From an uncultured virus (IMG/VR IMGVR_UViG_2061766007_000542) (Duplodnaviria; Heunggongvirae; Uroviricota; Caudoviricetes), in the IMG/VR virus record IMGVR_UViG_2061766007_000542: DNA of 29,183 nucleotides, one strand, 5' to 3'. Within the stretch, counting starts at the first letter, position 1, and each line of letters opens with the position of its first letter. The notes under the pieces were generated by a model. It was not told where the DNA came from and searched no databases. It saw only the letters and a list, made by a program, of their open reading frames with translations. Positions 2,482-28,948 of this stretch are shown here, in pieces. Both the position numbers and the translations under genes were made by a program.

Positions 2482-2482
2482 T

Positions 2483-3469: not shown

Positions 3470-3497
3470 CTTTTATGTTTTTATATTTAAATGTCAA
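3470..3497 (-). promoter_or_regulatory. Sigma70-like promoter for the moron cassette (TTGACA-16 nt-TAAAAG)
   Basis: Perfect -35 hexamer at 3497-3492 in the intergenic gap; weak -10. Confidence 0.5.
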
Positions 3498-3499
3498 GA

Positions 3500-5416
3500 T
3501 TAAGCGAACTGTACTCATTCTGATCATTGAACGAAGGCTCTACCTTTCACTTTACTTTGGTCTACCTCCTTTCAATTTACATAAATTGGGATATCTCATA
3601 GTGAGTCAAACATTCAGAATTTTCAATCTTTATGGTTTTTCTTCCATTCGTTATATGATTTTTGAGCATCTTCATCACTCATATTATATCACAATACTTG
3701 AGCTTGTTCTTTAATTGTTGTAATCTTTTCATCATCGCTCATGTCGTTCCATTCTTCTTTTACATCAGCGACACTTGTTAATAAATCATTTACAATAATT
3801 GCAGGAGATGCATCTCAAAACGATTTTGCGGCTTCTCCAATAGTTCATGGAGCTTCTCTTAGCATATCCATCAAACCGTTAGGGTCTGCTACTTTTAGCA
3901 TTCACATTCCTTTTGAAGCTCATTTAAGAAACTTCTTACCGTTTTTCAAAACATAATTGAAAACATCTCAAACACCTTCAACAACTTGTTTTCCTCCTAT
4001 TCAAGCCTTAGCCAATCATTTTCCTCATTTGTTTAATAATAATCAAGCTTTTTGTTTGATAGGGTCTGCTTTATTAGAGAGCCAATCCATAAATCCTCCA
4101 AACCCTCATTTAGAAGGTCATTTAGTAGCAGTAGAAGCCAAATTGTCAGCATATTCTGTAAGATTAGCATAGTCCTTATAAAGTTTTGCTGTATCTTGTC
4201 AGAGTTCTTTTGTTAAAGTGCTATGAATAGTGTTTTTGAGTTTATTTGAAAGAATACCTTTTAATTCTTGTAATTCATTTGTAACCTCATTTCATTTAAA
4301 GAATTTCTGTGGGGTTCTTCCTTGTAATCCACTCTTTAAAGTCTGTGAATCTTTGAGAGAGTAGTTAGCAAATTTACTATCTTTATAAGAATCTTTTAGA
4401 CTTCCTAAAGCATCTTCATAAGCTTTGAGTTTATCTGGATCGTTTTTAGCTAAATCTTGGATATCTTCTGCCAAGTCATCAATAAGTCCTTGTACATTGA
4501 TAGTAGAAGTCGATTTCTCTAATGCTGGATTGATTGTTTTCTTAAAGATTTGATTAGCTTTTGACCTTGCTTGGATACCTCTACTTTCAGCACTCCATCA
4601 CTCTGTTAATCATTCTCAAACATTATATTCTAAAGCAGTATCAGCAACGGTATTTACTTTTCTTGCTTGTGCTGTTTTTAGATTTTGCTCCGCTTCATTG
4701 AGGACATTCTGAGCTTCTTCCACTCATTCTCAAAGTTTTTTCGCTTGTTTTAATTCTGCTTTAGCATCTTTTACAGCTATTTCTGCATCTTTGAGATTTG
4801 CTCAAGCTCTTTGGACTTCTCTTGCTTCTTTGATTGATTGGTCAATAGTAGAGGAGTAAAGTTTCTCTCCAAGTTTCTGTAATCATTTTCAAACTCAACG
4901 AACTGTAGCATCAGTTCAAGCTAATGCTCACATAGTTCAAGCTGTAACTGCAAGCCTCTTTCAGACTTTACTCTCTTCTTCAACTGGTCTTTCTTTTAGT
5001 CCAGTTTCATAAAGAATTGTTTCGTCTCCACTTTCAAGATAAGCATTCAAACTCTCAATACTTGACCCTTTATCTTGTGCATAATTGATAAAACTATTGA
5101 TTACATCTTGAGTTTTAGCATCAGTTTTCAATTGGAACTTATCTTTTACCAAATCAGCCAACTGTTCTTGTCTTACATTACTTTGAAGATAGTTTTTTTG
5201 TTTTGGATCTTGTTCCGTTGTACTCTTATAAAAGAGTTCATTTTCTGTTTTTATCCTATCGTTAGAATAGTTTTGTTGATTAAGTTTATTGATTGCTTGT
5301 TGATACAGTTTTTGTTGTGCTTGTATCTTTTCAGTTCAAGTGAGGTTGGAAGTCACTTGTTCCAACCTTTCCACTTGTTCTTTGCTTAATCAAGGGAAAT
5401 TTGTGTTTGTGTCCAT
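3500..5416 (-). CDS. Large virion protein, probable DNA-ejection/internal protein 2, 638 aa
   Basis: One continuous frame with TGA=Gly joining track ORFs 4961-5161 and 4292-4474. Helical, Ala/Gly/Lys-rich. Position matches podovirus ejection proteins. Confidence 0.7.
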
Positions 5417-5419
5417 TCT

Positions 5420-8395
5420 TTATAATCACAATATAAAATCAATATTTTGGTCTGAATAGATGTTTTGAGTGTCGAATAATCCATCAAAATATTTTGTTCT
5501 ATCGTCAGAAGGTCAAGTTTGGATAGGAGATTGATAGTTATAATAAGTTGATAAATCGATACCCATTGATTGATTAAGCCATTGTGCAGCCGCATCGGTA
5601 TAGATAGGGTCTGGTTTATATCCCGTTGCTCTATAAAAGTTTAATGCTTCAGACTCATTCTTTTCATAGAGATTCCTTGCAAAATGTTGGAATACAGCCT
5701 TTGCTTTATCAGTTCCCATATTACCACTTAAAAGTTCTTTAATATCATTGATTTCTTCCGTCGTTGGACTTGCCCCTCCTTTCAATGCTTTTGCAATTTC
5801 TGAAGAAGCTACTCTCAAATCTGAATACAAAGCTCAAACAGTAGGGTCTCCAGTTTCTGACTTAAATTCGTTAATCCATTTATTGATTGTGTTAATATCA
5901 TAGTTTCATAATTCATCAAAAGAATCAGAAACAGCCTTTAGAATAGACATAGCCGTTGAGTTGGCTGAAGAAGATCCTCAAGGTCAAGCCGCCTTTTGCC
6001 AATCTTTAATAACTTTATTAGCTTGGTCAAATTTTCCTTCTGTATATCAAGCATCTCTTCCAATGGCAGCAGCAGCCGCTCTAATTCTTGCATTAGATTT
6101 ACCATTATCAGCTCAAGATTTAGGAAGACTTGCTGGATTAGTTTGATAAGTTAAAAGTCCCTCTACTGTTAACCATTCATCATCTGTAAGATCTCTCCAT
6201 CAAGGATATTTTGTGAAATCGTAAGTAGTACCATTATAATTAAAGGTTGTTTCTTTCCCCCCTATATCACTATTAGCCTTTGGAGGTTGACTTGGATCAA
6301 AGAATCCTTTACAAGAAGGGCTTCAAGCTAAAATATGTCTTGTATGTACCACTCAATCACTGTTATAATTACTATCTTTTACATCAAAACTTCAATCATC
6401 ATATACTTTCGTAACAATTCCTACATGTCCATAATTTACTCAATCACTGCTTTTGTGGTTATAATCAAACACTGCAACACTTCATACAATAGGAGTATCA
6501 CTATTTACTGAGTTTAGTTTTGTGTTTATATCATTGTCATAATATCTTCCTAATCCTATTTTTTGGAGATAATCATTTACAAACTTTCCACATTGTCCAG
6601 CCTTATAATTATCTTTTGCTTCTGATTCATTGAGAAAATCTCATAAAGTATAAGTTCAAGTTCAAGTATCCAACGATAAGTGAGAACTATCTACTAAATC
6701 ATAAGGTTTAGCAGTTGAAACCGTTTCAGAAGGGTCTTCTAAGTATTGATAAGAGATACTACCGTTTGGATTAGTGGTCATTATTACAGATTTACCATTT
6801 ATTGTTGCTACACTTTGTTTAGATAGCATTCAATATTGAGTAGCTACTTTTTGTTTATACTCTGCCTTTCATTGTAAAGGTTTGATAAAGTTCTCAGTCA
6901 TTGCTTGAGCTACACTTATTCCCTTTTCATTCGCATAATTGATAATATCATCTACTACTTGAGCCTGACTCCTTTGAATAATATCTCCGTACTGTTCATA
7001 ATAAGAAGTTAAAGCATTGTTGAGATTTGCTCTTAGTTGCTTTGGATCACTTACAGAAAGGTCTGTTAATTCGTTTTGTAATTGATTTTGAAGTTTTGCT
7101 CCAGCATATTGATTATATAAGTTCAAGTCTTGCTGTTTTGACTGCTGTAACAAATTCATTTCGTTTGAAATAGCTGTTGTAGTCAATTGAAGTTGTGCTT
7201 GTTGTTCTGGTGTTCTATAACTTGCTGTTTGCATAGCAAAACCAAGCCCTTGTAATCTTTGGTTAAAGATTCTTTGGTCTTCTTGTGCTTGTGCTTGCAT
7301 AACTTGTACAGATTGATTAGCAAGAGCAAGATTGCTATTTCTACCATTAAGAAGAATTTGATAAGAGTTTTGTAAATTAGCTTCTACTTGCTGATAAGGA
7401 GCAAGAGCTTTTTGCATTCTTGCAGCTGCTAAAGCATCACTTACATTTCCACCCGCATTATTAGCATATCTTGTCATGATACTTTCCATCTTTTGATGGT
7501 TTTGATTAAGTTGGTTTTGATAGTTTGATAATTTCTCACTATCACTAAAAACCCCAAGCCTCTCACACATTGAAGTCCAATTATCATAGATTTGATAAGA
7601 TTGTCATGGATCAAGATTTAGTTTTTTAGAGATAGATTGAAAGAGTTCAGCATTAGCAGTTGGGTCTGCAGGAGTAGCAAGGTTAGCAATTCTCAAATTG
7701 ATTTCATCTTGTTGCTTTTGTTGTCGTTCTCTATAAGCTTCAGGACTGTATTCTTTAATATAGTTTAGTTGGTCATTAGTGATCTCTGCATCATTCATAC
7801 CGTTTAGAATACTATCTCAGGTATTGTATCTTTGAGCGGTATCCATTCCCTCTTTTTTCTTCCAATAACTATCCAAGAGAGCTTTTTGTTGATCGTTTCT
7901 ATCGTTATAATGAAACATCTTGTTATAAGTATCTCTATCTGAGAAATACTCTCTATTTGTTTGTCGGTAAGCATTCAAGTTATTAGTGATTTCATTCATT
8001 CTTGCATCACTATCCAATTGATAGTCTGGTCTTCAAGTTTGTTGTGCTGTTCCCTCTTGTACTTTTACTTTTCCATCAGTCTTTCCGAACATTGAAGTGT
8101 CTAATTTTTCCTCTGGATCATAAGTAGGAGTTTCAATCTTTGGTTCTTGTTGCTGTACTTGTTCTTGTTGCTGTACTTGTTGATTTTGTTGTTGATTTTG
8201 TGAGGTCTGTTGTGGATTAGAAAAAGAATTAGAATCCTGAATCTGTTGAGGGTTAGTTTCTGATTGATATTGATTCCAATAGTTCTTAAAATCTTCTCAA
8301 GTTCAAGGTTGAGCTATCAGATTTTCAATTTCTTTTTTCCCCTTTTCATCCATTCAATTCAATTGATTTTTGAAATTATCATAGGTCATAGCCAT
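5420..8395 (-). CDS. Large Gln-rich virion protein with internal CHAP domain, probable ejection protein 1, 991 aa
   Basis: Continuous frame joining track ORFs at 8017, 7798, 7570 and 5830. CHAP-like segment at about 6295-6600: GQCGKFVNDY...PIVGSVAVF...YGHVGIVTKVYDDGSFDVKDSN. Confidence 0.8.
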
Positions 8396-8413
8396 TTGTT
8401 TTCGCTTATTAGA

Positions 8414-8442
8414 AATAAAAACACACAAATTTCTTTGTGTGT
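8414..8442 (-). terminator. Hairpin ACACACAAA/TTTGTGTGT plus T-tract, overlapping the start region of late-promoter copy 2
   Basis: Perfect 9-bp inverted repeat 8421-8442 followed by TTTTATTT on the minus strand. Confidence 0.45.
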
Positions 8443-8470
8443 AATATAATCATTTTTTCAATTTTGGCGG
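8443..8470 (-). promoter_or_regulatory. Late-promoter motif copy 2 (CCGCCA-16 nt-TATATT)
   Basis: Upstream of the ejection-protein genes; same spacing as the other copies. Confidence 0.7.
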
Positions 8471-8494
8471 ATTATATGCTTTATCCTTTTTTTA

Positions 8495-9262
8495 TTATCA
8501 GAGTTTTACTATACGGAAAGTACAAGCAACAAAACAATTATAAGTTCACGAATTACATGCTCTTCATACTAAAGGAATAAGTTTTGTCCCTTTCGGATAA
8601 GTCGATATTGCTGTACAATTAAAAGTTGCACCGTTTCAAGTTCCCCTATAACTTGCTCATTCGATATGAGAACACATTCAAGTTTTTGGATCAATAGTAT
8701 CTAAATAAACCCAAGTTTTATCTTTATAACTATTTATTGAATCATAAGTATTTCCCCAATAAGTGAAACTACCACCTATTAAAATATAATATACTCCATC
8801 TTCTGCAATTTCAACATAAGTTGTCTTTGTGGTTTTATAGTTTATAGTGTTTTGTGTTCATCAAGAAGCATAGGTAACCTCTCACTCTCTTAAAATATAA
8901 CTTGTAGCATCAGGAGAAATAATATTATTAAATGCTTTACTTCCTGCATTATATCATAAAGCTTTTAAATCATCATCAGTAAGCCCATAGGGAAGATTAG
9001 AGGGATCTCGTTTCCCTCTTGTAAAGATTGGAGCTTCATAAGATACAGGAGTATTATTGACAGAATTGTCTACAAGAGCCATTCATGCTATCTGTAAAAG
9101 CTTAAAATCAGTATCTTTATTTGCATCTCTGAATTTCCATTTATCTCCTTGTAATCAAGGTCTTATCTTTGTACCGTTATCATCTCTTGGTCGGTTACTA
9201 TCTCAGAAAACGGCGTCATCACCGTTTCTGAAATCGTTCCCAAATTGTTTTCAAGCATACAT
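8495..9262 (-). CDS. Virion tail-associated protein with beta-rich C-terminus, 255 aa
   Basis: TAATG-coupled to the upstream gene. Open with TGA=Gly. YVEIAEDGVYYILIGGSF resembles beta-sandwich tail domains. Confidence 0.65.
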
Positions 9263-11622
9263 TATCATCTGTTCCTTTGATTAGCGACTAAATCTACTAC
9301 AAACAGTTCTGGACTTGCTTTTTCTGTTCAAGTTCCTCTTACTTTTACTTGTAAAGTATGAGTCTTTGGAAGTTCAAGCAAGTTATTAAGGTTTGTGAAT
9401 CTCTGCTCTCATTCTGTATATTCATCTGCAGTTATTTCTCAGATTTTTCTAAAGTGATTGTATTCTGTATAAGTATAGAATCAAGTTCAAACAGTTGCTA
9501 TTGCAAGTTGTTTGAGAGAACTTTCTGTTTGTTGTGGTAAATCTCAAACAAGTCTATAAGTAAACCATACACCGTCATCTTCTACATACTCCAAATGATA
9601 AGTTCCTGTAGTTCAAACAATCTTAAGTTCTTCTGTTCTTAATTGTTCAAGTGCAAGATCTGGGTCTATTCAAGGCATAGCTTCTCCTACTTTGAAAGTT
9701 CGATAATGATAATGATTTCAAGCTCCCCAAAACTCTAATTTGCAGTCTTTTGAGGGAAGAATATAAGAACAATATAAGTCTGACTCTTCTTTCTCTAAAA
9801 GATGATTTCCTATTGCGATTGGGTATTCAGCCTCTCGTACTGTTTGATAGTTCTTATACTTATTGTCATCTTGATAAATGATATTATATTTTTTTGTTAC
9901 TGTTTCTTCTTCTTGTTCGTCATATTCTTCTTTTTCATAACTTACGATCAAATTTTCTCCCTCTACTTTTAAATCAGTGATTTCTCCTTCACAATCCAAA
10001 ATAAAACTTCAAGCTTTACCTCAAGTCGTTTGTCAGTATTGAAAAACACGGTTATCTTCTGTTGTTAGAATTAAATCTCCTCTATATTCTACCATCTTTC
10101 AAGTAAATCTATATTGTTCCTCTGTATCGATTAAATTTTCATATTGTAATACGGTCTGACCTGTCTTTTTCTTATTCCCTCAGATTAAAGGAACAAGCTC
10201 TTGAGTATTATAGCACCACAATTGACTTATCCCTCTGTCTTCTCCTACAAGATACATAAGATAATCAATATTGATAGCCCCTTTGAAAGTACATCAATAA
10301 GCAATATAAGGAGTTCCTTTTCATCAAGTCAAATCGCAAGGAATAATATAACCGTTTCAATCCATGTCCCCTATCATATAGATTCTTTCATTCCAAGAGA
10401 TCATGTCTACCACATCCATTGTTGTTGGATTATCCCAAGCCATATATTGAGTTAATTTATAATCCGTTATATCATAACCAGTCTCGTTCATTTTCCGTGA
10501 TGATTCATACTGGTAAAGTGTTTGTGTTGTTGCTCATTTCTCCCAGTAATACTCTCAGATTTTTTTGAGTTTTCTATCATTTTTGATAGGAAGCAAATTA
10601 TAAGTATTGAAAGTATCTGCATAAATGTCTACGATTCAATCTCCATAATCTCGCCTCATGCTTTCTACTCTAAAAGGGTCTGGTCATCACATAAAATTAA
10701 CCATAAGCCTATCTTCCCATTTATAAGTACTTCTTCCATCTTTTTGCTTCAAACGGAAAGTAATACGGACATAATGATTACTATTTTCTGAAGTTCAAGC
10801 ATTGTTTGGATTAGCTTCAAGTTCAATATATTCTGGAGTATAAATATCATAAGTATCTCCATAACTTATCGTAGCGAGATTATTTCTCAAACTTACAAAG
10901 CTATTAGTCTGAGGAGAATAATAATGTTCCCATTCCCAATACTCGACAGATTCAATATAAGGAACGGCATCATCATCTCTTCCATTATATTTATAAGCTC
11001 AAACTGAAAACTTTATTTTCCCAAATTCTGAAGTAGGAATATTAAAATACACTTCTCATCGTGTAGCATTGTTATCCGACTTCTTTATCATGTATCATTG
11101 ACACAATCATTTAGAATCATCCTGTGGACGATCCCACCTTTCTATTACACCTCCTTCTCGTACAAGATTTGTAAGAGCATCAGCTGGAAATGTTTTCTGA
11201 AAGATATATCCGTTTTTATTATAATTATACTGTGCATCATTTGAAAACACCGTAAAATTCTTCCAATCTCATCATTCATATTGTGCGATAATATCTTTTG
11301 AAGTCCCTCGATCTGCTTGATTATATGTCCCATATCTTCCAGTATAAGATACTGTAGTGTCTGGCATAGTAGCATCTGGATCAGCTATTACTGCATCGTT
11401 TTCATACACTTTCCCATCAGTTTTCAATACTAAGCTTCCTACTTGTTTAATAATATCACTTCAAGTCTCCGTTTTTTCACTCCAAGCCGTACCTTTTACA
11501 CTTTTACTACTTGAAAAAATGTCTAAGTTTTTACTTCTTAGACATCAAGGATTAGTAGAATATTTATCAGTTTGCTGTCCTGCTGGGAGTCAAGAAGTGA
11601 TTATGTTTAGATTTTCTACCAT
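9262..11622 (-). CDS. Probable tail nozzle / packaged-DNA stabilisation protein (P22 gp10 / T7 gp12-like position), 786 aa
   Basis: TAATG-coupled to the adaptor gene. Long beta-rich frame with TGA=Gly including track ORF 9718-9999 (not every codon checked). Function assigned by size and synteny. Confidence 0.65.
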
Positions 11623-12296
11623 TATTTATCGATTTTAGAATAATAAATACTTTGTACTCTTTGAGTGATATATCTTTTCATTTCCTCCTTTTTCTGTTCA
11701 TAAAGATTCCTACATCTATCAGCTTTATCAAAGTCTTGTTTATGTTCTCGAAGTTCTGCTTTTAATCCGAACATCACTACTTCGTAAAAGTCTTTTAAAT
11801 CTTCATGTCAAGGGAATAAAACTTCTTCTTCCTCATCATCAAGAGTTATTTCATTTACTGCACTTATTCCTTCTACTTTTAATCCTCCTTCAATAGTTTC
11901 TTCTGGGATTCGATTAAGAATAATATGATTGTCTTTTACGGTATAACCTCTTAATCAAACCAATTCTTCACTGTCTGACAATTCATTTAATACTTCTGTT
12001 CCATTTTCTGTAATGATAGACACTCTCTTTACTTTAGCTATTCAAGGAACTTTAACAGTATTTCAGAGGTCATCAATATATTCTGTTTCTTCTCTCTCGA
12101 TTTTATACTCTTTAGCTCATTCTTGGAGGTCTGTATTTCGATAAGTCCAAAAATAATCTTCTTGTACTGTTACGATCATTCTCCATAGTTCTTTATATCT
12201 TGCATTAAATTTTCTCAATGCTTTTTCATAAGGATAACTAGCAACTGATGTATTTGTATCTTCATAAGCATCCTTAAATATTTCTTCTATCGTCAT
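11622..12296 (-). CDS. Probable head-tail adaptor, 224 aa
   Basis: Directly after the capsid gene. MTIEEIFKDAYEDT..TDLQEGAKEY layout resembles adaptor proteins. Confidence 0.65.
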
Positions 12297-12335
12297 TCTC
12301 AATAATAAATAACAAGTTAAAACATACTATTTATT

Positions 12336-12362
12336 AAAGAGGAGGAGAGATTTCCTCCCCTC
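12336..12362 (-). terminator. Possible intrinsic terminator after the capsid gene
   Basis: Stem GAGGGGAG/CTCTCCTC (one G-U) with loop GAAAT and a weak T-tract. Confidence 0.5.
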
Positions 12363-12373
12363 AAAAATATTTA

Positions 12374-13237
12374 CTAAGCAATAGCTGTAATCTCTGCTTT
12401 TACAAGTTGTTCTCCATTTTGGTCAAATACTTTTCCTCCATGTGCTACTTGTCCTAATAAGTTGTAGTACATTCCAGCTTCTGCTTCAGTTACTTTTGCT
12501 TTTACAAGCTGTCTTACATAGTTGAAAGCTTTTGCTCTGAAAGCATAAACATTTGTAGAAGTGATAAGATTTGATTCAAAGATAGAGAATCCTCCAAATT
12601 TTCCTAACCATCCTTCTACTGCTGCATCAGCTGCTACTTCTGTTCCAGCCAAGATTCCTGCTTGTGCAATAACTGCTGAAACATCAGGAGATACTACAAG
12701 GATTCTATTATTCATAGGAACATCTTTTTTAGAAAGTGCTGTTCTCAATCCCATAATATCTTTAGCAACCGTTGAAACAGACATTGAAGCGATAGTCTGA
12801 ACTTGACTTGAATGAGCTGTAAAGTAAGCATCAAGCATAGTGATAATTGAAGTTTCTACAGCTTCATCAATACCGTTTACAAGGTCTTTCATTCTTTCAC
12901 TTCCGATATTGTAGAGAGTTTGGATTTCTTCAAGGTCTGAGAATTTTTCTCTGTATTGATGCAATTTGTTAATTACAAGGTCAGAGTGAGTGATTGTTCT
13001 ATCACTTGCTGTAATATCAGCACAAGAAGTAGCTTTAATATCTCCACTGTTCAAAGCTGAAACATCTGTAAGAGAGATTTTTGGACTTACTGGAACTGAA
13101 ACAGTATCTCCAGCTCTTCTTAAAGTTCCTTCAAATTCGTAGTTAGCGAATCTCATAAATGGTTTTCTTGGATCGTCAGACATTTTTCTTCTCAATTCTG
13201 CTGCGACAATCTGTGTAATTTTATCAGTATTAGCCAT
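12374..13237 (-). CDS. Major capsid protein (P22-coat-like), 287 aa
   Basis: NYEFEG..RAGDTVSVP, LSKKDVPMNNRILVVSP, GWLGKFGGFSIFESN and HGGKV motifs. Located after the scaffold. Intact even in code 11. Confidence 0.9.
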   Translation of the reverse strand: MANTDKITQIVAAELRRKMSDDPRKPFMRFANYEFEGTLRRAGDTVSVPVSPKISLTDVSALNSGDIKATSCADITASDRTITHSDLVINKLHQYREKFSDLEEIQTLYNIGSERMKDLVNGIDEAVETSIITMLDAYFTAHSSQVQTIASMSVSTVAKDIMGLRTALSKKDVPMNNRILVVSPDVSAVIAQAGILAGTEVAADAAVEGWLGKFGGFSIFESNLITSTNVYAFRAKAFNYVRQLVKAKVTEAEAGMYYNLLGQVAHGGKVFDQNGEQLVKAEITAIA

Positions 13238-13285
13238 AATAATATAAGTTTAAAAGATAAATATTCCTTTGGTTGTTTGTTGTTG

Positions 13286-13450
13286 TTAGTCTTCTTTTGA
13301 CTGTACTTTTGCTTTACCTTCCTTGATTTCCTTTTCTATTGCTAAGAACTGGTCTCTTGGAAGAACTGCTAATTCTTCTTCTGTCCATACTTTAACAGAT
13401 TTCTTTTCTGTTTTTACTTCTTGGACTTCTTTTTCTTCTTTAATAGCCAT
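13286..13450 (-). CDS. Small protein resembling a scaffold C-terminal coat-binding motif, 54 aa
   Basis: MAIKEEKEVQEVKTEKKSVKVWTEEELAVLPRDQFLAIEKEIKEGKAKVQSKED, between scaffold and capsid. Confidence 0.65.
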   Translation of the reverse strand: MAIKEEKEVQEVKTEKKSVKVWTEEELAVLPRDQFLAIEKEIKEGKAKVQSKED

Positions 13451-13458
13451 TTCTTTTG

Positions 13459-13995
13459 TTAATCATTTAAAATTTTTATTTCTCCTTTTTCTGCTTTACT
13501 TGCTATCGTTGCATAAGCAGTTGGATTTTTTTCTGCAAGTTCAGCTATTTCAGAATAACTGTACTCCTTCTTTTCGATTTCTGAGTCAATTTTCTCCCTT
13601 CAAGGATTAGTGTTTACGGTACTTGTTGGAGTACTCACTTGATAGTCAGAGATTTTTAGACATTGTTCCCGTGTTAAGTCTGGATATTTCTCTTTAACAG
13701 ATTTGATTTCCTCTGGAATCACATCAAATCCATTCTTTGCTGAGAAAGTGATTTCATCTCTTAAGTTCTTTTCGAGAGTCTCTTTGTCGACCTCTTGATT
13801 CTCTCTTTGTGCAATATCAGCTTTCTTAAAAGCTTCTTTTGCTTGTTTCTTTTTCTGATCATATTTCTCTTTAGAAACATAGTTGTTTTCAACTTCTTCT
13901 TTAGAGATATACTTCTCAGAAAGTTCTTCTCTTGAGATAAAATCTTCTTGATTGAATTCTTGTTCACTTCAATCATCATACACGATTTTTGGCAT
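13459..13995 (-). CDS. Probable capsid scaffolding protein, 178 aa
   Basis: Charged helical protein upstream of the capsid gene; open with TGA=Gly. Confidence 0.7.
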
Positions 13996-14028
13996 CGCTT
14001 ATTCAGTTAGTAGATAAAAAAGTGTTGA

Positions 14029-14307
14029 TTAGTGGTCACCCTCCACCGATATATCAGATTGATTACTGATCCTTGTTAAAAGATATTCTGGAATCTTTAA
14101 GAACTCATCAATTAACTCTAATTCTTTCAGCTCCATATCTCTTTTGTTATAGATGGACTTACTCCTATCTTCACTGATTCAAGATAGAATGCCAGCTTTT
14201 AATTCTTCTTTTCTATCCTCTAAATATTGTTTGATAAATTCCCAATATTGAGAAGATAGTCAGTCTTTTATTGTTCCAATATCCTTTTTAGCTAAATTGA
14301 GAGACAT
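14029..14307 (-). CDS. Small helical protein following the portal, 92 aa
   Basis: MSLNLAKKDIGTIKDGLSSQYWEFIKQYLEDRKEEL...; overlaps the portal stop. Confidence 0.7.
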
Positions 14308-16270
14308 CGTTTCATGAAGTAGGTCATAAAGCTTGAGGTTGTGCTTGTTCCTTATTATTCTGTGAAATATAATTACTTACAAGCTGATTTTGTGTTGCAT
14401 CGTTTCCTTGTGCCATTCCTTGTTGCATAGCCATTGCTTGTTGTTGTCAGCTTAAGATTAAAGCTTGTCTTCTTTTCATTATTGCTTTTGTCTTTGCTGG
14501 TCAATCAATAGCCTTTTCATACACTTGAATATAAATCTTGTGATTTTCTCCCATATCTGTGATAGGTCAGACATCTTCTCCATTGTTTAAGAGTTCAAGG
14601 TCAAGCATTGCTTTATCATATTCTGGAGGGAAATCATAAATCGTATTTACAAGCTCTGAATCCATTCCCATCACATTTGCAAATTCTCTCGTAAGTTGGA
14701 TTTTTCAAAACTCGTTTGCTTGTTCCATTAAAGGTTGATAAGATGCCATAAATGCACTTTTAGTTGCTTCTGTTTTATCTTGTGCATCGAGTATCGTTAT
14801 AAGTGACATATGTAAATCTCTTTTCGTATCTAAGTCTTTTCCCATGATGGTATAAGTCACATCTCAGAAACCACTATTTAATACAATGTTCTTTTCAGAC
14901 TTCATTTTGAAATACTTTTGATAGCTTCTATACCATAGAACATCCCAATATTTCTTTTCTCCTCGTAAGAATACTTTGAAAATAGTTGTAAGTCTGACAT
15001 TTTGATTAGCTTGTAGTAATTGACTCTGTGTAGCGGTAATTGTTTTAGCATATACTCCGATACTTTGCTCGTCAAATCCTATTTCTTTTGTACTTTTAGC
15101 ATCTATCATATTTTTGAGATTGTATCCATCTCCAGTTGAAGAAGTTTGTGTTTGGACATTTTTTATAATCTCTCTATTTTCAAGATTTCATTTTGAAGGG
15201 ACATATTTTCTCTTTCAGAGTTGTCTGTGTGCTAATTCTTTTCAGTCAACCACATCACTATTAAAGACAGTAATTCAAGAGAAAGTTTCCTCATGAATCT
15301 TATTGATTAAGAGATTCATTACTTCTTCTTCGCTCTCTTGATTATCACTCGCTAAATCTCCTACACATAATCCATAAGGATCTCATTTCTTAGGAAGCAA
15401 CCAACTATGAACTACTGGACATGGAATAAGAGTAGCATCTTTTTTCTCCTCTTTTCTTACAGCTTCTACTTCTTCACATCTTATTAAAAGAGTTCTATCG
15501 TTCGCCCATTCTGTAAGATACCACCTTCCATTGAATTTTGTAAAGTGTCTATAAACGGAATATTGTTTTAAAGGAGATTGATAAGTGTTCCACATTCCAT
15601 CGATTCCATAACCATCAGCTCGTTGGAGTAAATTGTTATGATAATCGCTTCCTAATTTTTCTTTTAGATCTTCAAGCTCTTCATCAGTAAGCATAAGCTC
15701 TTTATTCTTATAGAGTTCGTTTATTTCTTCTTCAGAAAGTACAAGCTCAAATCCGTGAAAGTTAAAACCTTTTACTACATCAAAGTAAGGATCAGGAATC
15801 CAACACATAGGAGAATAAAGTCTTTTCTTTGGAGATTCTGTTATATAATCCCAACCTTCATCGACTGCAAGATAAACTCCATAATCCACTTCATCAGAGA
15901 TTTTTTGATAAGTGATGATTTCTTCATCTAATTCCTCATAATCAAACTTCAATAATTTATTCCAAGTTTTAGCATATTCATCATCGCCCCTTTTTCTTCC
16001 TTGAAATTCTACAAGAGGTCTATTCTTATAAAGTGCAGAGATGAAAAGATTCCTGTAAGTATACATTGATTTACTCTTTACAACATCACCGTCTTTTATT
16101 CCTTTTCAGTCTACATTGTATTGAGAAAGATACTTTTTTAAAAGAGGTCTTTTTACTCTTGCGACTTCTGCTCAAGCGGTATATTCATTTTCTACTTTCT
16201 GCAAAATTTCCTCAAAGTCCCAACCTTTGATTTTATCTATCATTTTTTTTGTTATAAAGTTGTTTACCAT
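14288..16270 (-). CDS. Portal protein, 660 aa
   Basis: Frame joining track ORFs 15383-16066 and 14864-15109. CWIPDPY and TITATQSQLLQ motifs, Gln/Met-rich C-tail, follows terL. Alternative start at 16243. Confidence 0.85.
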
Positions 16271-16304
16271 CTTCTTTGTTTTAAGTATCAAATTATTTAC
16301 GGTC

Positions 16305-16332
16305 AGTATAATCAAAAATTCAATTTTGGCGG
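16305..16332 (-). promoter_or_regulatory. Late-promoter motif copy 3 (CCGCCA-16 nt-TATACT)
   Basis: Upstream of the portal gene, immediately after the terL terminator. Confidence 0.7.
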
Positions 16333-16342
16333 AAAATAAAAT

Positions 16343-16379
16343 AAAAAAAAATCTGACTCTTATTTTCAGTCAGACTTTT
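16343..16379 (-). terminator. Intrinsic terminator after terL
   Basis: Minus strand reads AAAAGTCTGACT-loop-AGTCAGATTTTTTTT. Confidence 0.65.
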
Positions 16380-16416
16380 CTTCTTTTTTTGTCTTTTTTT
16401 ATCGAGAAAAATACAA

Positions 16417-17706
16417 TTATCGTGATTCTATGATTTTTCATTTCTTCACATTTCCCTCAAACACTTCACAAACAACCGCTAAATATCTAAAAGCATCAGA
16501 AGAGTGAGAACTCCAATCGTGTTCTGGTCACTTAAAAGAAGTTCTTTTTTCATCAAACTCTTTATGATAATTCTTCAAACATTTTCGCCCTCGTTCTGTT
16601 TTCTCTTTATCGAAATAACATCTTGGAAGTATTGCTCTTGCTGAATTGATTCCATCTAGAACAGAAAGTTTAGGAACTATTTGAACATCATTGAAACCGT
16701 ATTCATACATTTTCTCTTCTACGGTTTTTCAAGTCTGTAAACTTCTTGCTTGTGCATCGTGTGGGAGTCGCACCGTTCAATATCTATAACCTTTCTCTCT
16801 TAAAACTCCTACATAATGAGAAAGTCATTCTCAATTATTCTCATAATGGTCTATTACTCTTATTTCTCTTCCGAAGATTTGGAAGAATCGAATAGCTGTA
16901 CTATCGTTTATTCCTAAATCTCGAACCGTGAAAACATCAAGGGCAGGATCATAAGGAACTTTTGTTCTTTGACCGTTATTTTCCAATTGACTCAGTATTT
17001 CTGCATAATAACTACCATTGATTCAAGCATCAAAAGAGCAATAATACTCTTGTTGAAAAATTGCATCATTTCCATTTTTTTGGATTATTTCTCTTCTTTC
17101 TCATTCAAGAACTTCTGGAGCGATTGCTTTTGTATCTTCTACCGTTTGAATTGATACAAGCCGTTTGTCGTTATCTTTTGCCATATCTAAAAGTTCTTTT
17201 GCATGATTATCTCATCTTGGAGTAAAGTTGAAAATCGCCCAACCTCCATTCTCTGCAAGAATAGGACGGAGAAAATCTCGCACCACTGGACTTTGTAAAG
17301 AGTACTCAGAGAAAACAATTCAGATTGGATTTGTCCCAACGATACTATCTACATTATCAGACCCTATGATTTGGATAATACTTCCATTGATTAGCTCTAT
17401 TTTCATTTCTGTATCGTTCTTTCTGCTTACCAATTCATCTGGAATATGTTTGATAGTTTTCCAACCATCTTTATCGATTCCATCTCGGACGGCCTTCTTT
17501 CATTGTGAATAAGTAGGGAAAACATAATAATAAATTCAGACTTCTTCCATTGCTTTCTTTACTATTACATTGAAACAAGCTTTATCTTTTCAAGCCCTAC
17601 GATGCCAAACCATAATAATTCTTTTTACTCCTTCATCTATTGCTTCAAAGATTGGTAATTGATAATCTCTTGGTTCAAAATGATAAGGAATTGTTATTTC
17701 TGTCAT
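16417..17706 (-). CDS. terL: Terminase large subunit, 429 aa
   Basis: Walker A WHRRA(G)KD; GTNPI(G)IVFSEYSLQSPVV(W)DFLRPILAENGGWAIFNFTPR(G); nuclease TV(W)DLGINDSTAI(W)FFQ; HDWSSHSSDAFRYL. Bracketed residues are TGA (G) or CGA (W). Confidence 0.95.
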
Positions 17707-18119
17707 TTTTTATATGAAATAATGTTAATATTTAAAGAAGTGTCTGACTCTACTTTATCGATATACATTTTATGATACTTTCAGAGTTTTTCTAATGCTG
17801 AGTTTACATTTTTAAGATCATAAATCTTTTGAGTTTTTCCTTTCAATTCTATTTCTTGTCTTCCCATTCCTATTTCTACGATCTCTTGGAGATTTTGTAA
17901 AACATACTCAACTCATACATCTAATTTTTCTACTTTCTTTTGAGATTTCTCTGTTAGATACTCTGAAACCTTAACATTACTTAATAGTTTACATCATAAA
18001 GCTTCTGCCGATTTTTGGCTTACTCAGTAGACTTTCTTATAAGCATCAGTAGCATTGAAGCTTTTTAGATATTCCAGACAGAACATCTTTTGCTTTTGAG
18101 TTAAATCTTTCGTCTTCAT
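17694..18119 (-). CDS. terS: Terminase small subunit, 141 aa
   Basis: LTQKQKMFCLEYLKSFNATDAYKKVYG..KLLSNVKVSEYL..ALEKLGKYHKMYIDKVE; overlaps the terL start. Confidence 0.9.
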
Positions 18120-18150
18120 TTTTGTCGTTTATGATAATAAAACATTTGAG

Positions 18151-18178
18151 AGTATAATCAATTTTTAGATTTTGGCTA
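18151..18178 (-). promoter_or_regulatory. Late-promoter motif copy 4 (TAGCCA-16 nt-TATACT)
   Basis: Upstream of terS. Confidence 0.7.
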
Positions 18179-18180
18179 AA

Positions 18181-18205
18181 ACAAAAAGGGAAACCTAATT
18201 CCCTT
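18181..18205 (-). terminator. Intrinsic terminator AAGGGAA/TTCCCTT plus T-tract
   Basis: Inverted repeat 18186-18205 followed by TTTGTTTT on the minus strand. Confidence 0.6.
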
Positions 18206-18264
18206 AATGCCTAACAGTCATAAGATGACAAAAACGAAACAACATCTCCCAAAGGAGCAACACT

Positions 18265-18292
18265 AATATAATCATTTTTTAGAAATTGGCTA
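18265..18292 (-). promoter_or_regulatory. Late-promoter motif copy 5 (TAGCCA-16 nt-TATATT)
   Basis: Overlaps the stop of the HTH gene; same spacing as the other copies. Confidence 0.6.
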
Positions 18293-18602
18293 AATTTTTT
18301 TCTACTTTATCAATATTTTTTACATTATTCTTGAACTTATTTAGGATCACATCTATTTTGCTATGATGCACTCCTAAGAGGTATGATATTTTTCTTGCTG
18401 AGATTTGTTGTCCGTCTACATATTCGTAGTCAAAGTATAAATCAAAGAGAGTATCATGGATTGCTTCTTTTTGATTGCTACGAAAGTATTTTGTTAGTGA
18501 TATTACATAAGGGATTGAATAAGTGATTATTACTCGATTATCCTTTACTGCTTCTCAAAGGATTCATTTTTTAAATAGCTTTTTACATCTTTCATCTATC
18601 AT
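18279..18602 (-). CDS. HTH protein (sigma70 region-4-like), candidate late transcription activator, 107 aa
   Basis: C-terminal YVDGQQISARKISYLLGVHHSKIDVILNKF helix-turn-helix. Last gene before terS, the usual position of late activators. Confidence 0.65.
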
Positions 18603-18645
18603 TTATAAAACAAAAGAAATAAAAATCTGATTATTTTAAAGAGGT

Positions 18646-19347
18646 TTATAAGTCTGAATTTTTCATACAATCTCTATTAAGATATTGTTCTTTATGTGTT
18701 GCCCACCTGCAATTATCTTTACAATAATCTCAATTACAATCTATCCTATCAATAGTTGTTTCTTTTTCTCAAAACTCTTTACAATGTTTTTCATATGATT
18801 CTCACATATCTCTAAAAAACTCTTCAAAATTTTTCCACTTACATTTTATTCATTTGTCGAAATAATGTTTCTTTCAAGAATATCATTTCGTTCTTCATAA
18901 AATATCACACCAAATAGTATATATTCTCATATCTCTTGTCCTTTCTACTCAATATTTTCTTTTAGTTTTCATAACATCTACACAAATACATCAACAAGAT
19001 TTAGTGTGTCAACTTATAAGATTTTGAAGATATGTTGTAATAATATTTCAGCATTCACATTGTGCAGTTATAACTCTTCTTTTATTCTTAGGTGTTTCTT
19101 CTGATATTATTGTTAATCTTCAATACTTCTTTCATATAATTTCTTTATGTTTTTTATTTACACAACTACATCAAGAAATATTTCATTTTAAAATATGATA
19201 TGCTCTTGTTTCAATTGTTTTTCAACATACATTACACCTGCAAATTAACCATTGATGATATCAAGCCTTTTTTCATAATCATAAAATTGTTAATCATCAA
19301 TATGTTTTTCAGATTGTATCCTCAAAATTTATTTTTTTCCCTCTCAT
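18646..19347 (-). CDS. HNH homing-endonuclease-like protein, 233 aa
   Basis: Two Cys-rich repeats (IGKKYGRLTI..CECGN..NLISGHTKSCGC), IYTIWCDI and TIDRIDCNGDYCKDNCRWATHKEQ. Contains 22 in-frame TGA and is invisible in code 11. Confidence 0.9.
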
Positions 19348-19853
19348 ATTTTTTGTTTTTTTGTTTTTATATAAATATGCCACTTTTCAACCATCTCCTC
19401 ATATTCTCATTGAGATATTTTTACAGTTTCATTATCGTTTCGATAAATTGCTTCTTGTTTTTTTCATACTGTTTCATCCATAAACACCTTATAATCTCTA
19501 TAATTTCCGTGTTTTGTTACATTACAAGTATAACATTGAGGATAGACTTGATTTATATCAAATCTATATTTTAAACATCACCTTGATCTATAGTGTCAAG
19601 CCTGTATTTCTCTTCGAAAAAATCTTTTTTTACAAGTGCAACATTCGCACATTCATTTATCATCAGAATAATACAACCTTACATATTCTGAAAAAACTCT
19701 ATCTGCTAAGTCTTTCCAAGAGTCTCGATTTTTATAAGTTTTGAAAATATCATTTCGTAACTCTTGGTTTTTAGTTTCTTCGAACAATTCTTTTGCTTTT
19801 TTTGTTTTAAAAAGATTGTTTATTCTTTCTTGAAGAGTTTTTCTTTTTTTCAT
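19329..19853 (-). CDS. ninG: NinG/Rap-like recombination endonuclease, 174 aa
   Basis: ADRVFSEYVRL..GMCECCTC..F(W)REIQAGHYRSR..RFDINQVYPQCYTCNVTKHGN. Confidence 0.85.
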
Positions 19854-19913
19854 AAAAAAAGGAAAGAAGCCATATAAAACAGCTTTTCCCAAGTCTTACC
19901 ACAAATTACTTTC

Positions 19914-20118: not shown

Positions 20119-21015
20119 ATGATTAAAACTTTTATTGAACGATTAAAGATTAACAGAAATAGCCCTAAAAATACTTTAGATAATTATTCAAGAGTACTTA
20201 ATAAATTTAATAATTTTCTTACTAAGAGTTCTTTTGGAGATGTCACCCTTTACAACCCTGAAACTGTGAGATTTTATCACATAGATCAACGAATAGCAAT
20301 ACAAAGAGAGAAATACACAATAAAGACTTGTAATTTTTATGTTTGATGTATTAGAAGCTTTTTTAGATTTTGCCTTTATAGAGAGCTGAATGTTTTAGAT
20401 TACAAGGGAATCAATTTCTCTAAAGAGCCTGAAAGGAAAATCGAGTATTTAAACGATGAAGAGATAGAGAGTATCTTTCAAGAAATTAAAAAGAGAAAGG
20501 TAAAAAATAAAAATCAGATTCTTATCAAGGTAAGAGATTTGTGCATCGTTAAATTTCTTTTCTACACAGGACTAAGGATTTCTGAACTTTTGAATTTAAA
20601 GAAGTCTGACATCAAGGACGATATGATCCAAGTAATAGGAAAAGGAGGAGTGCATAGAGTAACTTTCATAAAGAGAGGAACAGAAGAGAGGAAGCTTCTT
20701 GACTATTATTTACGATTAAGGAAAGATAATGAAGAACGACTTTTCGTAAATCATAGCAATAACAGTTGAGGGAAACTTAGTAGAAATTCCGTTGAAAGAA
20801 TGGTAAAAGAGGAGTGAAAGAAACTCTGAATAAAGGTACGACCTCATATTTTCAGACATAGTTTTGCCACAAAATTGATTAGAAAAAAAGCATCTATTTT
20901 CCATGTACAGAAACTTTTAGGACATAAAAATATACAAACGACTCAAAATTACCTATGATGTCTGGATAAAGAGCTTGAAGAAGTGCAAGAATTAGTAAAA
21001 GAGAAAATAGAGTAA
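20119..21015 (+). CDS. Tyrosine recombinase (XerC/D-like or integrase), 298 aa
   Basis: N-terminal SAM-like domain ([10 protein letters not shown]), [35 protein letters not shown] and [16 protein letters not shown]. Full R-K-HxxR-H-Y catalytic set. Confidence 0.92.
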
Positions 21016-21018
21016 AAT

Positions 21019-21066
21019 ATGCATTGCATTATGCAGTGCATATATGCAGTGCATCATGCAGTGCAT
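21019..21066. repeat. Four tandem 11-bp palindromes ATGCA(G/T)TGCAT
   Basis: Copies at 21019, 21031, 21044 and 21056. Confidence 0.9.
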
Positions 21067-21079
21067 ACATTAAATTTAT

Positions 21080-21400
21080 ACAGTTGTGAACTGTTAAAAC
21101 ATCACTATACAAAGTGATAAAAAACCACTATAAAGCATTAAAAAAGTATGAAAAGAAAAGAAGAAAAAAAGAAAAGAAAAAAAAGAAAAAAAAGAAAAGA
21201 GAAATTTCCCCCCCACACCCCCCTATATAGAGAAAAGAAATAAAAAAGAAAAATAAAGAAAAGAAAAAAAGAAGAAAAGAAAAGGCTTTTTCCAAAAAAT
21301 TTATTTTTTTGTTGATCAATGAATCAGATAGGGGAGTGGAGTTGGTTAAAAAATCAGATCATTTCTTAAACACAAAAACACAGTTGAGAACTATTAAAAC
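21080..21400 (+). repeat. 21-bp direct repeat ACAGTTGWGAACTRTTAAAAC flanking an A/G-rich tract
   Basis: Copies at 21080-21100 and 21380-21400 with 2 mismatches, exactly 300 bp apart. Confidence 0.8.
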
Positions 21401-21590
21401 TTTTACGGCGACCAAAACAAAAAAGGGGAGTGATAATAGTTTTTGACTATGATTTCTTACATTTTCATCTCTTTTGAGATGTGATTTTGATGTAATTTTG
21501 AAAAATAATTCATAAAATTTATTTATTTTTTGTCAAGTTTAGTAAAGTTTTATCAGTTCTGAATTGCTATAAAAAAAAGTAAAAAAAGTC

Positions 21591-21618
21591 TTGCAAAATA
21601 ATTTTTTAGGATTATACT
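21591..21618 (+). promoter_or_regulatory. Sigma70-like rightward early promoter (TTGCAA-16 nt-TATACT)
   Basis: Upstream of the plus-strand replication operon. Confidence 0.65.
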
Positions 21619-21687
21619 ATAGGCGTTATCAAAGATTACAAATTTCTTTTACATTGCACAAGATACATAAGTGCAGGTAAAAAAATT

Positions 21688-21722
21688 AAAAGTCTTTGAT
21701 CGCAACATCAAAGGCTTTTTTT
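21688..21722 (+). terminator. Leader terminator 1
   Basis: AAAAGTCTTTGAT-CGCAAC-ATCAAAGGCTTTTTTT. Confidence 0.7.
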
Positions 21723-21799
21723 CAAGTCTAACCACAAAAAAGATTTTACAAAAAGGAGCTATGATGTTTGGAGTTCGCCTACATCCAAATTAACGGAAT

Positions 21800-21873
21800 A
21801 AAGTCTGTTTATATACGGTGGTAGGAAAATGCGAACTCCTTCCTACTGCCAGATATAAACGGACTTTTTGTTT
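21800..21873 (+). terminator. Leader long hairpin / terminator 2
   Basis: 21800-21827 pairs with 21840-21867 (26 pairs including G-U, 2x2 internal loop), then a T-rich tail. Confidence 0.65.
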
Positions 21874-21914
21874 ATACGGTAGAAAAAATCTTTTATTTTC
21901 TAACCTATCACGAA

Positions 21915-22097
21915 ATGTTTACAATTTTCGACAAGGGAAACGGTAGAAACTTCATCGGATACAAAGATGGTGGAGCATTCGAACTGGTAAAAGAAGGAGG
22001 GAGGATCTACATTGCAGAGTGGAAATTTGATTTCTGACTTTGTGCCATGTGAAATCCTCTCGTCTACGGTAAGGACTTTATCTACGGAGAAAATTAA
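21915..22097 (+). CDS. Hypothetical protein, 60 aa
   Basis: MFTIFDKGNGRNFIGYKDGGAFELVKEGGRIYIAEWKFDFG...; first ORF after the leader. Confidence 0.65.
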
Positions 22098-22100
22098 GAA

Positions 22101-22661
22101 ATGAAAGTCGAGTATTTAGAAAAAATGAAAGACTTTTATTCAAAACTTCCACCAGAACAACAGGCTGAATGACTTTCACTTCTCTTAGATGAAATCATTA
22201 GAGAGAAAAAAGAGAAAGCAGAATGCTGAAATAAAAAGTGGAATAAAAAATCTTCAAAAAAACTCATTTCTGGATCTACCACACACACAAATCCAGAAGA
22301 AAAAACAAGAACAGAAGAAAAAACAAAAACAGAAGAAAAAATCAAGGTAAAAGACTTTGTCTATCTTACTCAAAAAGAGTATGACACACTCAAAAGCGAG
22401 TATTGAAGCAGGACTACTTCGGATATGATAGACCGTTTGAACAATTACATCTGAAGCACTTGAACAAAATACAAATCGCACTACTTCACAATCTTGAATC
22501 GGATTAGAAAAGAATGAATACCGAAAAGATATATTGAAACCAAAACGAGAGTTGAACAAGTCCAAAAACAAAACTTTTATTCTGAAAACAAACAAAATGA
22601 AACCAATAGCAATTCCTCCTTTAACCGAAGAACAGAAACAGACTGTAAGGAACTATTTTAA
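22101..22661 (+). CDS. Probable phage replication initiator, 186 aa
   Basis: C-terminal VYLTQKEYDTLKSEYG..IDRLNNYIGSTGTKYKSHYFTILN(W=CGG) motif of phage replisome-organiser proteins; internal repeat linker. Confidence 0.7.
22294..22341 (+). repeat. 18-bp tandem repeat CAGAAGAAAAAACAARAA (about 2.7 copies) inside the initiator gene
   Basis: Units start at 22294, 22312 and 22330. Confidence 0.7.
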
Positions 22662-27896: not shown

Positions 27897-28000
27897 ATGA
27901 AAGAGATAAAAGAACTCTTTGAAAGAGGGATAAAACACTGATATTCTCCAACTGATGTATTTGATGATTTCTTGAATGTAACGATTTTAAGTATCATAGA
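27897..28000 (+). CDS. 5' fragment of a second allele/copy of the N6-methylase-like gene, cut by N gap
   Basis: Same peptide as 28220-28323; only synonymous differences if TGA=Gly. Confidence 0.7.
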
Positions 28001-28219: not shown

Positions 28220-28948
28220 ATGAAAGAGATAAAGGAGCTATTTGAAAGATGAATAAAACACTGATATTCTCCGACTGATGTATTTGATGATTTCTTGAAT
28301 GTAACGATTTTAAGTATCATAGACATAAACAAAACGGAGGAATACGAAGAAAACGAGAAAACATACGAGAGAATAATCAAAAAATATGATTGAGATGTTG
28401 AAATGTTTTCAAAAATACTTGCTTGTTTTGTGAAAAAAATGGAAGAAACACAAGAAACATTAAAGGATTGGATTTGAGAATATTTTATGCAAGAAATATC
28501 ACACGGAGAACATTGACAGTTTTTTACTCCTGATCATATAGCTCATCTTTGTGCAGAAACGACGATAAATAAATTGACAGAAGAAAAGAAATTCCCATCT
28601 TATATGGATTGTGCTTGTGNNNNNNNNNNCGGTCAATTCTTTACTCCAGATCATATAGCCCACCTTTGTGCAGAAACGACGATAAGTAAATTGACAGAAG
28701 AAAAGAAATTCCCCTCTTATATGGATTGTGCTTGTGGAAGTTCAAGAATGCTACTACAAGCTCAAAGACTTAAGAGAAGGAAATCATACGGAACAGATAT
28801 TGATAGAAGATGTGTTTTAATGAGTGTCTTTAATCATTTATTCTATGGATTGATTGGATGCTTTACCGTATGAAATACCTTAATGAATGAAAGGAAAGAA
28901 GTATTTGAAGTTATGCCACCTTTCATTTACCACAAATCATTTAATTAA
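28220..28948 (+). CDS. N6-adenine methyltransferase-like (HsdM-like, short) protein; internal segment duplicated across N gap
   Basis: IGEYFMQEISHGEHGQFFTPDHIA, MDCACGSSRML, YGTDID and GNTL; ends VMPPF..TAA. Confidence 0.75.

Follow-up and report, generated by a model that had tools for sequence, protein, structure and literature searches.

A temperate tailed phage lineage probably written in the predicted Absconditabacteria code, with UGA as glycine and CGA/CGG as tryptophan

Gene Content and Reading Frames of the Window

The sequence analysed here (the window) is the 29,183 nt IMG/VR record IMGVR_UViG_2061766007_000542 of an uncultured virus, and the gene at the centre of the analysis is that for the terminase large subunit, TerL. 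The window covers some four fifths of the genome of a temperate tailed phage (Caudoviricetes) and carries genes for the small (TerS, PF03592) and large (TerL, phrog_2) terminase subunits, a capsid protein (phrog_267), a collagen-repeat fibre, a CHAP domain and an integrase (PF00589). Late genes, recognised by Pfam and PHROG matches, occupy the minus strand from nt 82 to 19892, and the early genes (tyrosine integrase, replisome organizer, ERF recombinase and an N6 methylase fragment) are on the plus strand from nt 20119. The GC content is about 32% overall and stays within about 27–34% along the window.

With NCBI translation table 11 the window has 20 open reading frames (ORFs) of at least 80 amino acids (aa), the longest of 287 aa, compared with 68 ORFs of up to 1013 aa with table 25, in which TGA is Gly. 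Judged from the sequence, TGA is a sense codon for glycine. The evidence given below supports a second change as well, the reading of CGA and CGG as Trp, with CGT, AGA and AGG still read as Arg.

Codons of the Terminase Gene

TerL is a 429 aa ORF that is open only when TGA is read as sense, as it contains 13 in-frame TGA codons. It matches the phrog_2 family (terminase large subunit) with an E-value of 1.3e-23, while no Pfam match at E ≤ 0.01 and no solved structure were found for it by sequence. The gene uses 8 CGA, 1 CGG, 2 CGT, 16 AGA, 1 AGG and 4 TGG codons. The protein was searched against 1.84 billion representative proteins, and the best 150 matches (39–56% identity) were aligned. Five of the nine CGA/CGG codons fall in columns that are 57–97% Trp among these homologs, and none falls in a conserved Arg column (Table 1).

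Codons of known meaning served as controls in the same alignment. Arg columns are occupied by CGT at aa36 (R in 149 of 150 homologs), AGG at aa37 (145) and AGA at aa13 and aa357 (137 each), with further AGA codons at columns with 131 and 125 R. TGA codons stand in Gly columns, at aa39 (G 146/150), aa165 (G 145/150) and others with 133 and 131 G. When the CGA and CGG codons of TerL were translated as Trp, the phmmer score rose for 149 of the 150 homologs, the mean gain being 25.8 bits; the one exception fell by 0.9 bits.

A preliminary description of the window had placed six CGA/CGG codons of TerL at conserved Trp positions. This is true of aa74, 143, 182, 262 and 273, and the coordinates it gave for two of these codons (16921–16923 and 16888–16890) are correct. 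The other four CGA/CGG codons of the gene are not in Trp columns. Among them is the CGA of the motif TV-CGA-LPHDA (aa313), cited there as a conserved Trp; the column is only aromatic/hydrophobic, so the example is weaker than was stated. The same description had conserved Arg residues encoded by AGA, AGG and CGT, and TGG also used for Trp, which agrees both with the TerL columns and with the log-odds that follow.

Codon Meaning across Three Genes

A Codetta-like count was made with alignments of TerL (150 homologs), the integrase (79 distant homologs) and the NinG-like protein (24 homologs), using columns that were at least half occupied and summing log-odds per codon. Left out before counting were 41 close integrase matches and one close NinG match, these being proteins of the same lineage already translated with CGA as Arg. 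The 17 CGA sites gave W +20.4, Y −8.4 and R −12.2, and the single CGG site gave W +4.4 and R −1.9. The other codons of interest returned their expected meanings: R +5.2 for CGT (2 sites), R +60.2 for AGA (38 sites), R +17.7 for AGG (7 sites), W +16.3 for TGG (6 sites), and G +18.5 against W +0.8 for TGA (24 sites). CGC occurs only three times, in doubtful ORFs.

Where a column had a majority residue of Trp or Arg, CGA/CGG coincided with six Trp and one Arg column, and AGA/AGG/CGC/CGT (AGR/CGY) with no Trp and 28 Arg columns (Fisher p = 4e-6). A profile-column count of this kind had been proposed in the preliminary description as a check on its reading of CGA/CGG, and it came out mostly Trp and not Arg.

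Interchange of CGA/CGG and TGG among Close Relatives

A scan of IMG/VR with TerL recovered 55 loci. Thirty-two are close (77–90% identity) and rich in in-frame TGA; the others are distant and have no in-frame TGA. A codon alignment of TerL was built from the window and 28 full-length close genes (29 sequences), leaving out the partial loci L027, L028, L032 and L039. It has 15 columns with any CGA, CGG or TGG, and in 14 of them TGG is mixed with CGA/CGG, for example TGG 11, CGA 17 and CGG 1 in one column and CGA 7 and TGG 22 in another. AGA was seen in one of these 15 columns, in two sequences.

Aligned codon pairs were also collected genome-wide from blastp high-scoring segment pairs of at least 60% identity. 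The proteins were translated with CGA as Arg, so the alignments are biased against a Trp meaning of CGA. Window CGA codons were nonetheless paired with TGG 185 times, with CGA 133 times and with AGA 3 times (of 337), and window CGG codons with TGG in 29 of 37 pairs. Reciprocally, window TGG was paired with CGA 59 times and with CGG 5 times (of 488). AGA behaved differently: among 1444 pairs its partners were AGA (959), AGG (136) and AAA (130), also AAG, and CGA was absent from the nine commonest. CGT was paired mainly with AGA (43) and CGT (26 of 70), and TGA with TGA (776), GGT (89) and GGA (76 of 1058).

Counted by site, 52 of the 64 CGA/CGG codons of the window are covered by relatives, and at 31 of these 52 at least one relative has TGG. 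The corresponding figure for AGR/CGY codons (307, of which 202 are covered) is 5 of 202 (Fisher p = 7e-21). Under the proposed code the path CGA–CGG–TGG is synonymous and CGA–TGA is not, which would fit CGG being a rarer intermediate.

Three independent lines of evidence thus favour the double recoding (TGA as Gly, CGA/CGG as Trp): the columns of distant homologs, the interchange of CGA/CGG with TGG in close relatives, and the gain in phmmer score.

Recoded Codons in Other Genes

The preliminary description had also pointed to CGA or CGG at Trp positions in NinG (FF-CGA-REIQAGH), in the initiator, here the replisome organizer (TILN-CGG), and in the tail fibre (YF-CGA-VGTQAQYDAL), and each of these was found to have Trp in homologs. 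The CGA at aa93 of NinG aligns with W in all six distant homologs that look standard-coded. The other homologs of this protein need care in interpretation: 18 of the 24 have W where Gly belongs (e.g., IQAWH for IQAGH), and the six more distant ones have G. Homologs with W at Gly sites are recoded relatives translated as by table 4, and R at their CGA sites is therefore a translation artefact. Publicly available predicted NinG proteins of the lineage (P0273–P0290) likewise have W at Gly sites and a mixture of R and W at Trp sites, i.e., they are doubly mistranslated.

In the replisome organizer the CGG at aa134 (KSHYFTILN-CGG-IRK) aligns with KSHYHTILAW and KSHYHTILNW, that is, with W in both GenBank phages (2/2). 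The C-terminal motif of the window's fibre matches PF24243 weakly, below the cut-off (E = 8e-4). A search of four complete relatives and one incomplete relative found PF24243 in two of the four complete ones, and the two strong matches (E = 2e-13) have TGG at the motif position, reading I-TGG-A-G-T-(E/Q)-A-Q-Y where the window has F-CGA-V-G-T-Q-A-Q-Y. Both CGA codons of the portal candidate have TGG in relatives.

The integrase informs mainly on the Arg side. Its invariant Arg columns (aa139, 153, 180 and 246, R in 79/79; aa201, 78/79) are all encoded by AGA or AGG, and its five CGA codons lie at Y-rich (e.g., Y 67/79), T-rich or variable columns, none of them in an Arg column.

Codon Usage and the Capsid Gene

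Codon usage was compiled from 33 ORFs, obtained by removing 35 overlapping or antisense ORFs from the 68 found with table 25. Their 8475 codons include 54 CGA, 10 CGG and 72 TGG, making CGA/CGG 47% of all Trp codons; in the 22 better-supported ORFs (7085 codons; 37 CGA, 4 CGG, 63 TGG) the share is 39%. CGA accordingly accounts for 52–64 of every 10,000 codons. Standard annotation mistranslates the phage, and table 25 would do so too, as the preliminary description maintained, placing Arg at 64 CGA/CGG codons of the larger set and at 41 of the smaller. Its statement that the full code is used in both early and late genes applies to the late TerL (9 CGA/CGG) and 786 aa tail protein (7) and to the early integrase (5) and replisome organizer (2), but not to the capsid gene.

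The capsid gene has no TGA among its 17 Gly codons (16 GGA, 1 GGT), no CGA/CGG and a single TGG, and in 18 relatives the same gene has 0–3 TGA and no CGA/CGG. The other genes of the window use TGA for 25–89% of Gly codons, the HNH endonuclease being highest. This pattern suggests that selection disfavours the reassigned codons in the gene expressed most strongly. A tentative wider proposal is that these codons are not selectively neutral: TGA, CGA and CGG are avoided in the capsid gene, and in other genes CGA makes up about 40% of Trp codons, above the use reported for hosts. If this is true, the SR1 code would still carry a decoding cost visible to selection, codon capture would have gone further in phage genomes than in those of their hosts, and a code lock would restrict the lineage, genes included, to hosts that share the code.

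tRNA Genes and the Host

The window contains neither a tRNA gene nor an Rfam match, and no tRNA genes were found in the examined parts of 21 related loci or in any of four complete relatives (36.9–40.9 kb, with direct terminal repeats); the control search was positive in 14 of 14 genomes. The Pfam matches of the window include no release factor or tRNA synthetase. Since the phage and its complete relatives lack tRNA genes, decoding must come from host tRNAs. The host would already read UGA as Gly and CGA/CGG as Trp, and the phage would depend on this, its genes presumably being decoded by host tRNA-Gly(UCA), tRNA(UCG) and tRNA(CCG). Taken together, the phage very probably follows the predicted Absconditabacteria (SR1) code, with UGA as Gly, CGA/CGG as Trp, CGU/AGA/AGG as Arg and UAA/UAG as stops, and is decoded by the tRNAs of its host. 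The code and the absence of phage tRNAs point to Absconditabacteria as that host.

Searches for relatives gave little on host identity. The protein atlas look-up returned only viral capsid clusters, and protein clusters yielded few organism names. Those cellular integrase homologs that do have a name, at 32–40% identity, carry the labels Patescibacteria, Pacebacteria and Peribacteria. A capsid fragment 88% identical to that of the window (P0407, MBO7696153.1) is present on a 35 kb contig in a metagenome-assembled genome (MAG) of Methanobrevibacter. The CHAP peptidoglycan hydrolase of the window argues for a bacterial host, and this copy is therefore probably a misbinned phage contig. Another capsid cluster, that of P0410 (59% identity), includes members from contigs as long as 920,981 bases; these may represent related prophages residing in genomes about 1 Mb in size.

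Other Features of the Window

The genes and codons discussed are listed in Table 1.

Table 1. Positions of genes in the window and of the CGA/CGG codons of TerL; residue counts are from the best 150 TerL homologs
Feature	Position (nt)	Strand	Remarks
Laminin_G_3 protein	within 82–19892	−	family match
Collagen-repeat tail fibre	811–2184	−	CGA aa431 at 892–894, in PF24243 C-terminal motif
CHAP-domain protein, about 1000 aa	within 82–19892	−	Pfam
Major capsid gene	12374–13237	−	phrog_267
Probable portal	14288–16270	−	by position, without family match; 2 CGA
Terminase large subunit, TerL	16417–17706	−	phrog_2; 13 TGA, 8 CGA, 1 CGG, 4 TGG
TerL aa74, CGA	17485–17487	−	W 145/150; TGG in 22/29 close TerL genes
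TerL aa143, CGA	17278–17280	−	W 113/150
TerL aa182, CGG	17161–17163	−	W 142/150
TerL aa262, CGA	16921–16923	−	W 129/150
TerL aa273, CGA	16888–16890	−	W 86, I 42 of 150
TerL aa313, CGA	16768–16770	−	aromatic/hydrophobic column, Y52 F27 I20 W12; close relatives CGA 18, TGG 9
TerL aa372 and aa374, CGA	16585–16593	−	aa372 variable, aa374 I78 L47; TGG in 2 and 20 of 29 close genes
TerL aa429, CGA (last codon)	16420–16422	−	L/I/V column; TGG not seen in relatives
Terminase small subunit, TerS	17694–18119	−	PF03592
HNH endonuclease	18646–19410	−	24 of 27 Gly codons are TGA
NinG-like gene	19329–19892	−	PF05766; 4 CGA; aa93 at 19614–19616
Tyrosine integrase	20119–21015	+	PF00589; 5 CGA
Replisome organizer	22101–22661	+	phrog_13246; CGG aa134 at 22500–22502

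The ORF of the probable portal is open to nt 16471, and the start is probably near 16270; the N-terminal 67 residues (16271–16471, minus strand) look spurious because they are hydrophobic and of low complexity, and a repeat copy lies inside them. This repeat belongs to a 49 nt family with copies at 2439–2487, 8428–8476 and 16290–16338, the copies being 67–71% identical to the reference copy. They sit directly upstream, on the minus strand, of late gene starts and contain a TATAAT-like box and a GC-rich block; they may be late promoters or regulator sites.

Following the integrase gene, a region of about 1.1 kb (21016–22100) contains no convincing ORF. It has a long palindrome at about 21003–21080 and purine-rich runs, and is a candidate phage attachment site (attP), origin or regulatory region. 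An Rfam search near the integrase for a tRNA fragment that could mark an attachment site gave nothing above chance.

The sequence has three runs of 10 N, at 25048, 28001 and 28620. Near-duplicates of about 100 nt with 93–94% identity (27897–28000 and 28220–28323; 28517–28619 and 28634–28736) flank the runs at 28001 and 28620, and in the methylase ORF a peptide is repeated across an N gap. The near-duplicates look like unmerged scaffold ends or strain variants.

Alternative Explanations

Several observations weigh against the proposed code or against the proposed host. At aa46 of NinG a CGA codon lies in an Arg-majority column (R10, W6 of 24), within the alignment that contains the mistranslated relatives described above, and at the variable aa372 of TerL the commonest residue is R (29/150). 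The case for CGG rests on few sites, ten in all, with support from TGG or W at five. At 9 of the 52 covered CGA/CGG sites at least one relative has AGR/CGY, mostly in alignments to distant loci or in doubtful ORFs, and 12 of the 64 sites have no relative to judge by. The sole GenBank phage match to the fibre end (BK063679.1, 13312–13386), which is not significant (E = 2), has CGG annotated as Arg. Avoidance of the reassigned codons by the capsid gene would fit costly or imperfect decoding. As to the host, when TerL was scanned against one genome from each species, the only match was 41% identical and came from a Puia MAG with the standard code, and a scan of metagenome contigs found close integrase relatives only on phage-sized contigs of at most 41 kb.

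The virus BK063679.1 is labelled as infecting Methanobacteriales and encodes a pseudomurein endopeptidase. The idea that it shares the recoding was rejected, as it carries this enzyme and looks standard-coded; it is probably a genuine standard-code archaeal virus with plain Arg at CGG. The match not being significant, the comparison carries little weight.

If CGA and CGG were ordinary Arg codons, at positions where the lineage had swapped Trp for Arg, the frames would still be open, as table 25 opens them without any change to CGA/CGG. All five Trp columns of TerL would then have to have turned to Arg. Moreover, CGA is absent from the conserved Arg columns of TerL and integrase, it interchanges freely with TGG and not with AGA in close relatives, and the Trp reading raises the score of nearly every TerL homolog; an Arg meaning is highly improbable. 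A reassignment that is real and not clean, with CGA decoded partly as Arg and partly as Trp, or slowly, would agree with a capsid gene nearly without TGA and without CGA/CGG, in the window and 18 relatives, when TGA is so common in other genes. Wobble ambiguity in such codes has been discussed (Shulgina and Eddy, PMC8629427). Frequent insertion of Arg would, however, be hard to tolerate, because CGA/CGG occur at nearly invariant Trp columns (aa74, 182 and 262) of an essential enzyme, TerL, and constitute 39–47% of Trp codons, and this explanation is considered unlikely.

Another possibility is a phage with a code of its own in a standard-code host. Some stop-codon-recoded gut phages are of this kind, as a 2021 preprint reportedly describes, and suppressor tRNAs and release factors have been described for them (PMC10746230). 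The present window and its four complete relatives have no tRNA gene, the Pfam matches of the window include neither a release factor nor a tRNA synthetase, and the recoded codons are already present in early genes (integrase, replisome organizer), which leaves a private phage code scarcely credible. It is also conceivable, with a small chance of being right, that the code is as described and the host is another lineage with UGA as Gly (a relative of Gracilibacteria/BD1-5), or one that has yet to be sampled and likewise has Trp for CGA/CGG. The host was deduced from the code, with no direct link in the TerL and integrase scans; the most similar named cellular integrase homolog (about 40% identity) is labelled Candidatus Peribacteria, and others Patescibacteria or Pacebacteria; and CGG as Trp has been predicted for some Gracilibacteria (PMC8629427). 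On the other side, in the relevant passages of PMC8629427 and PMC13092985 the combination of CGA and CGG as Trp with UGA as Gly is given for no group but Absconditabacteria. Absconditabacteria remain the preferred host, and their predicted code the preferred reading of the phage genes.

Comparison with Known Systems

The code itself is not new. CGA and CGG as Trp, on top of UGA as Gly, was predicted for Absconditabacteria from bacterial genomes with Codetta (Shulgina and Eddy 2021, eLife 10:e71402, PMC8629427), and the Absconditabacterales code was restated in a 2026 paper (PMC13092985). The hosts were described as having tRNA-Gly(UCA), a tRNA(GCG) for CGU/CGC, and tRNA(UCG) and tRNA(CCG) for CGA/CGG, the Trp or Arg identity of the CGN tRNAs being judged provisionally from identity elements (PMC8629427). 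The relevant passages of PMC8629427 and PMC13092985 give no experimental confirmation of CGA/CGG as Trp in SR1. The code was predicted from profile alignments; synonymous swaps of CGA and TGG within a large lineage of phages add evolutionary support of another kind.

With this code and code-25 phages of SR1 already published, CGA/CGG as Trp in a phage is expected in hindsight, and it is well supported here. A full-text literature search, outside which most subscription journals lie, found no report of phages reading CGA/CGG as Trp. The finding means that mistranslation affects at least 32 IMG/VR contigs of the lineage as well as many of its database proteins, a systematic annotation error, and that a codon-level test of the code could predict the host for such phages. 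It also indicates that reassignment of sense codons is no lasting barrier to phages, which bears on recoding as a viral firewall.

NCBI table 25 shares TGA as Gly and the TAA/TAG stops with the code proposed here and differs in CGA/CGG, which are Arg in the table and Trp in the phage. With Absconditabacteria the phage has in common UGA as Gly, CGA/CGG as Trp, Arg encoded mostly by AGA, and low GC (PMC8629427); the difference is that their code was predicted for bacteria, whereas here it appears in phages, in a lineage comprising at least 32 viral contigs with recoding. CGA is also commoner in the phage than in any Absconditabacteria species, at 52–64 against fewer than 37 per 10,000 codons, a rough comparison in that the former counts all ORF codons and the latter aligned Pfam domains (PMC8629427).

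Code-25 phages linked by spacers to Absconditabacteria and Gracilibacteria (Liu et al., mBio 2023, PMC10746230) are likewise dense in TGA and use the UGA as Gly code of their hosts, and include prophages bearing an integrase. Their code was judged by coding density with tables 11 and 25, and the main text of that paper, with which alone the present lineage was compared, contains neither the word CGA nor the word arginine. Two phages predicted to read AGG as Met, found in samples where Bacilli with recoded AGG occur (PMC8629427), similarly follow the sense-codon reassignment of their presumed host without a tRNA for it. They differ in the codon and amino acid concerned and in having a single reassignment, whereas the present lineage combines the reassignment of one stop codon with that of two sense codons.

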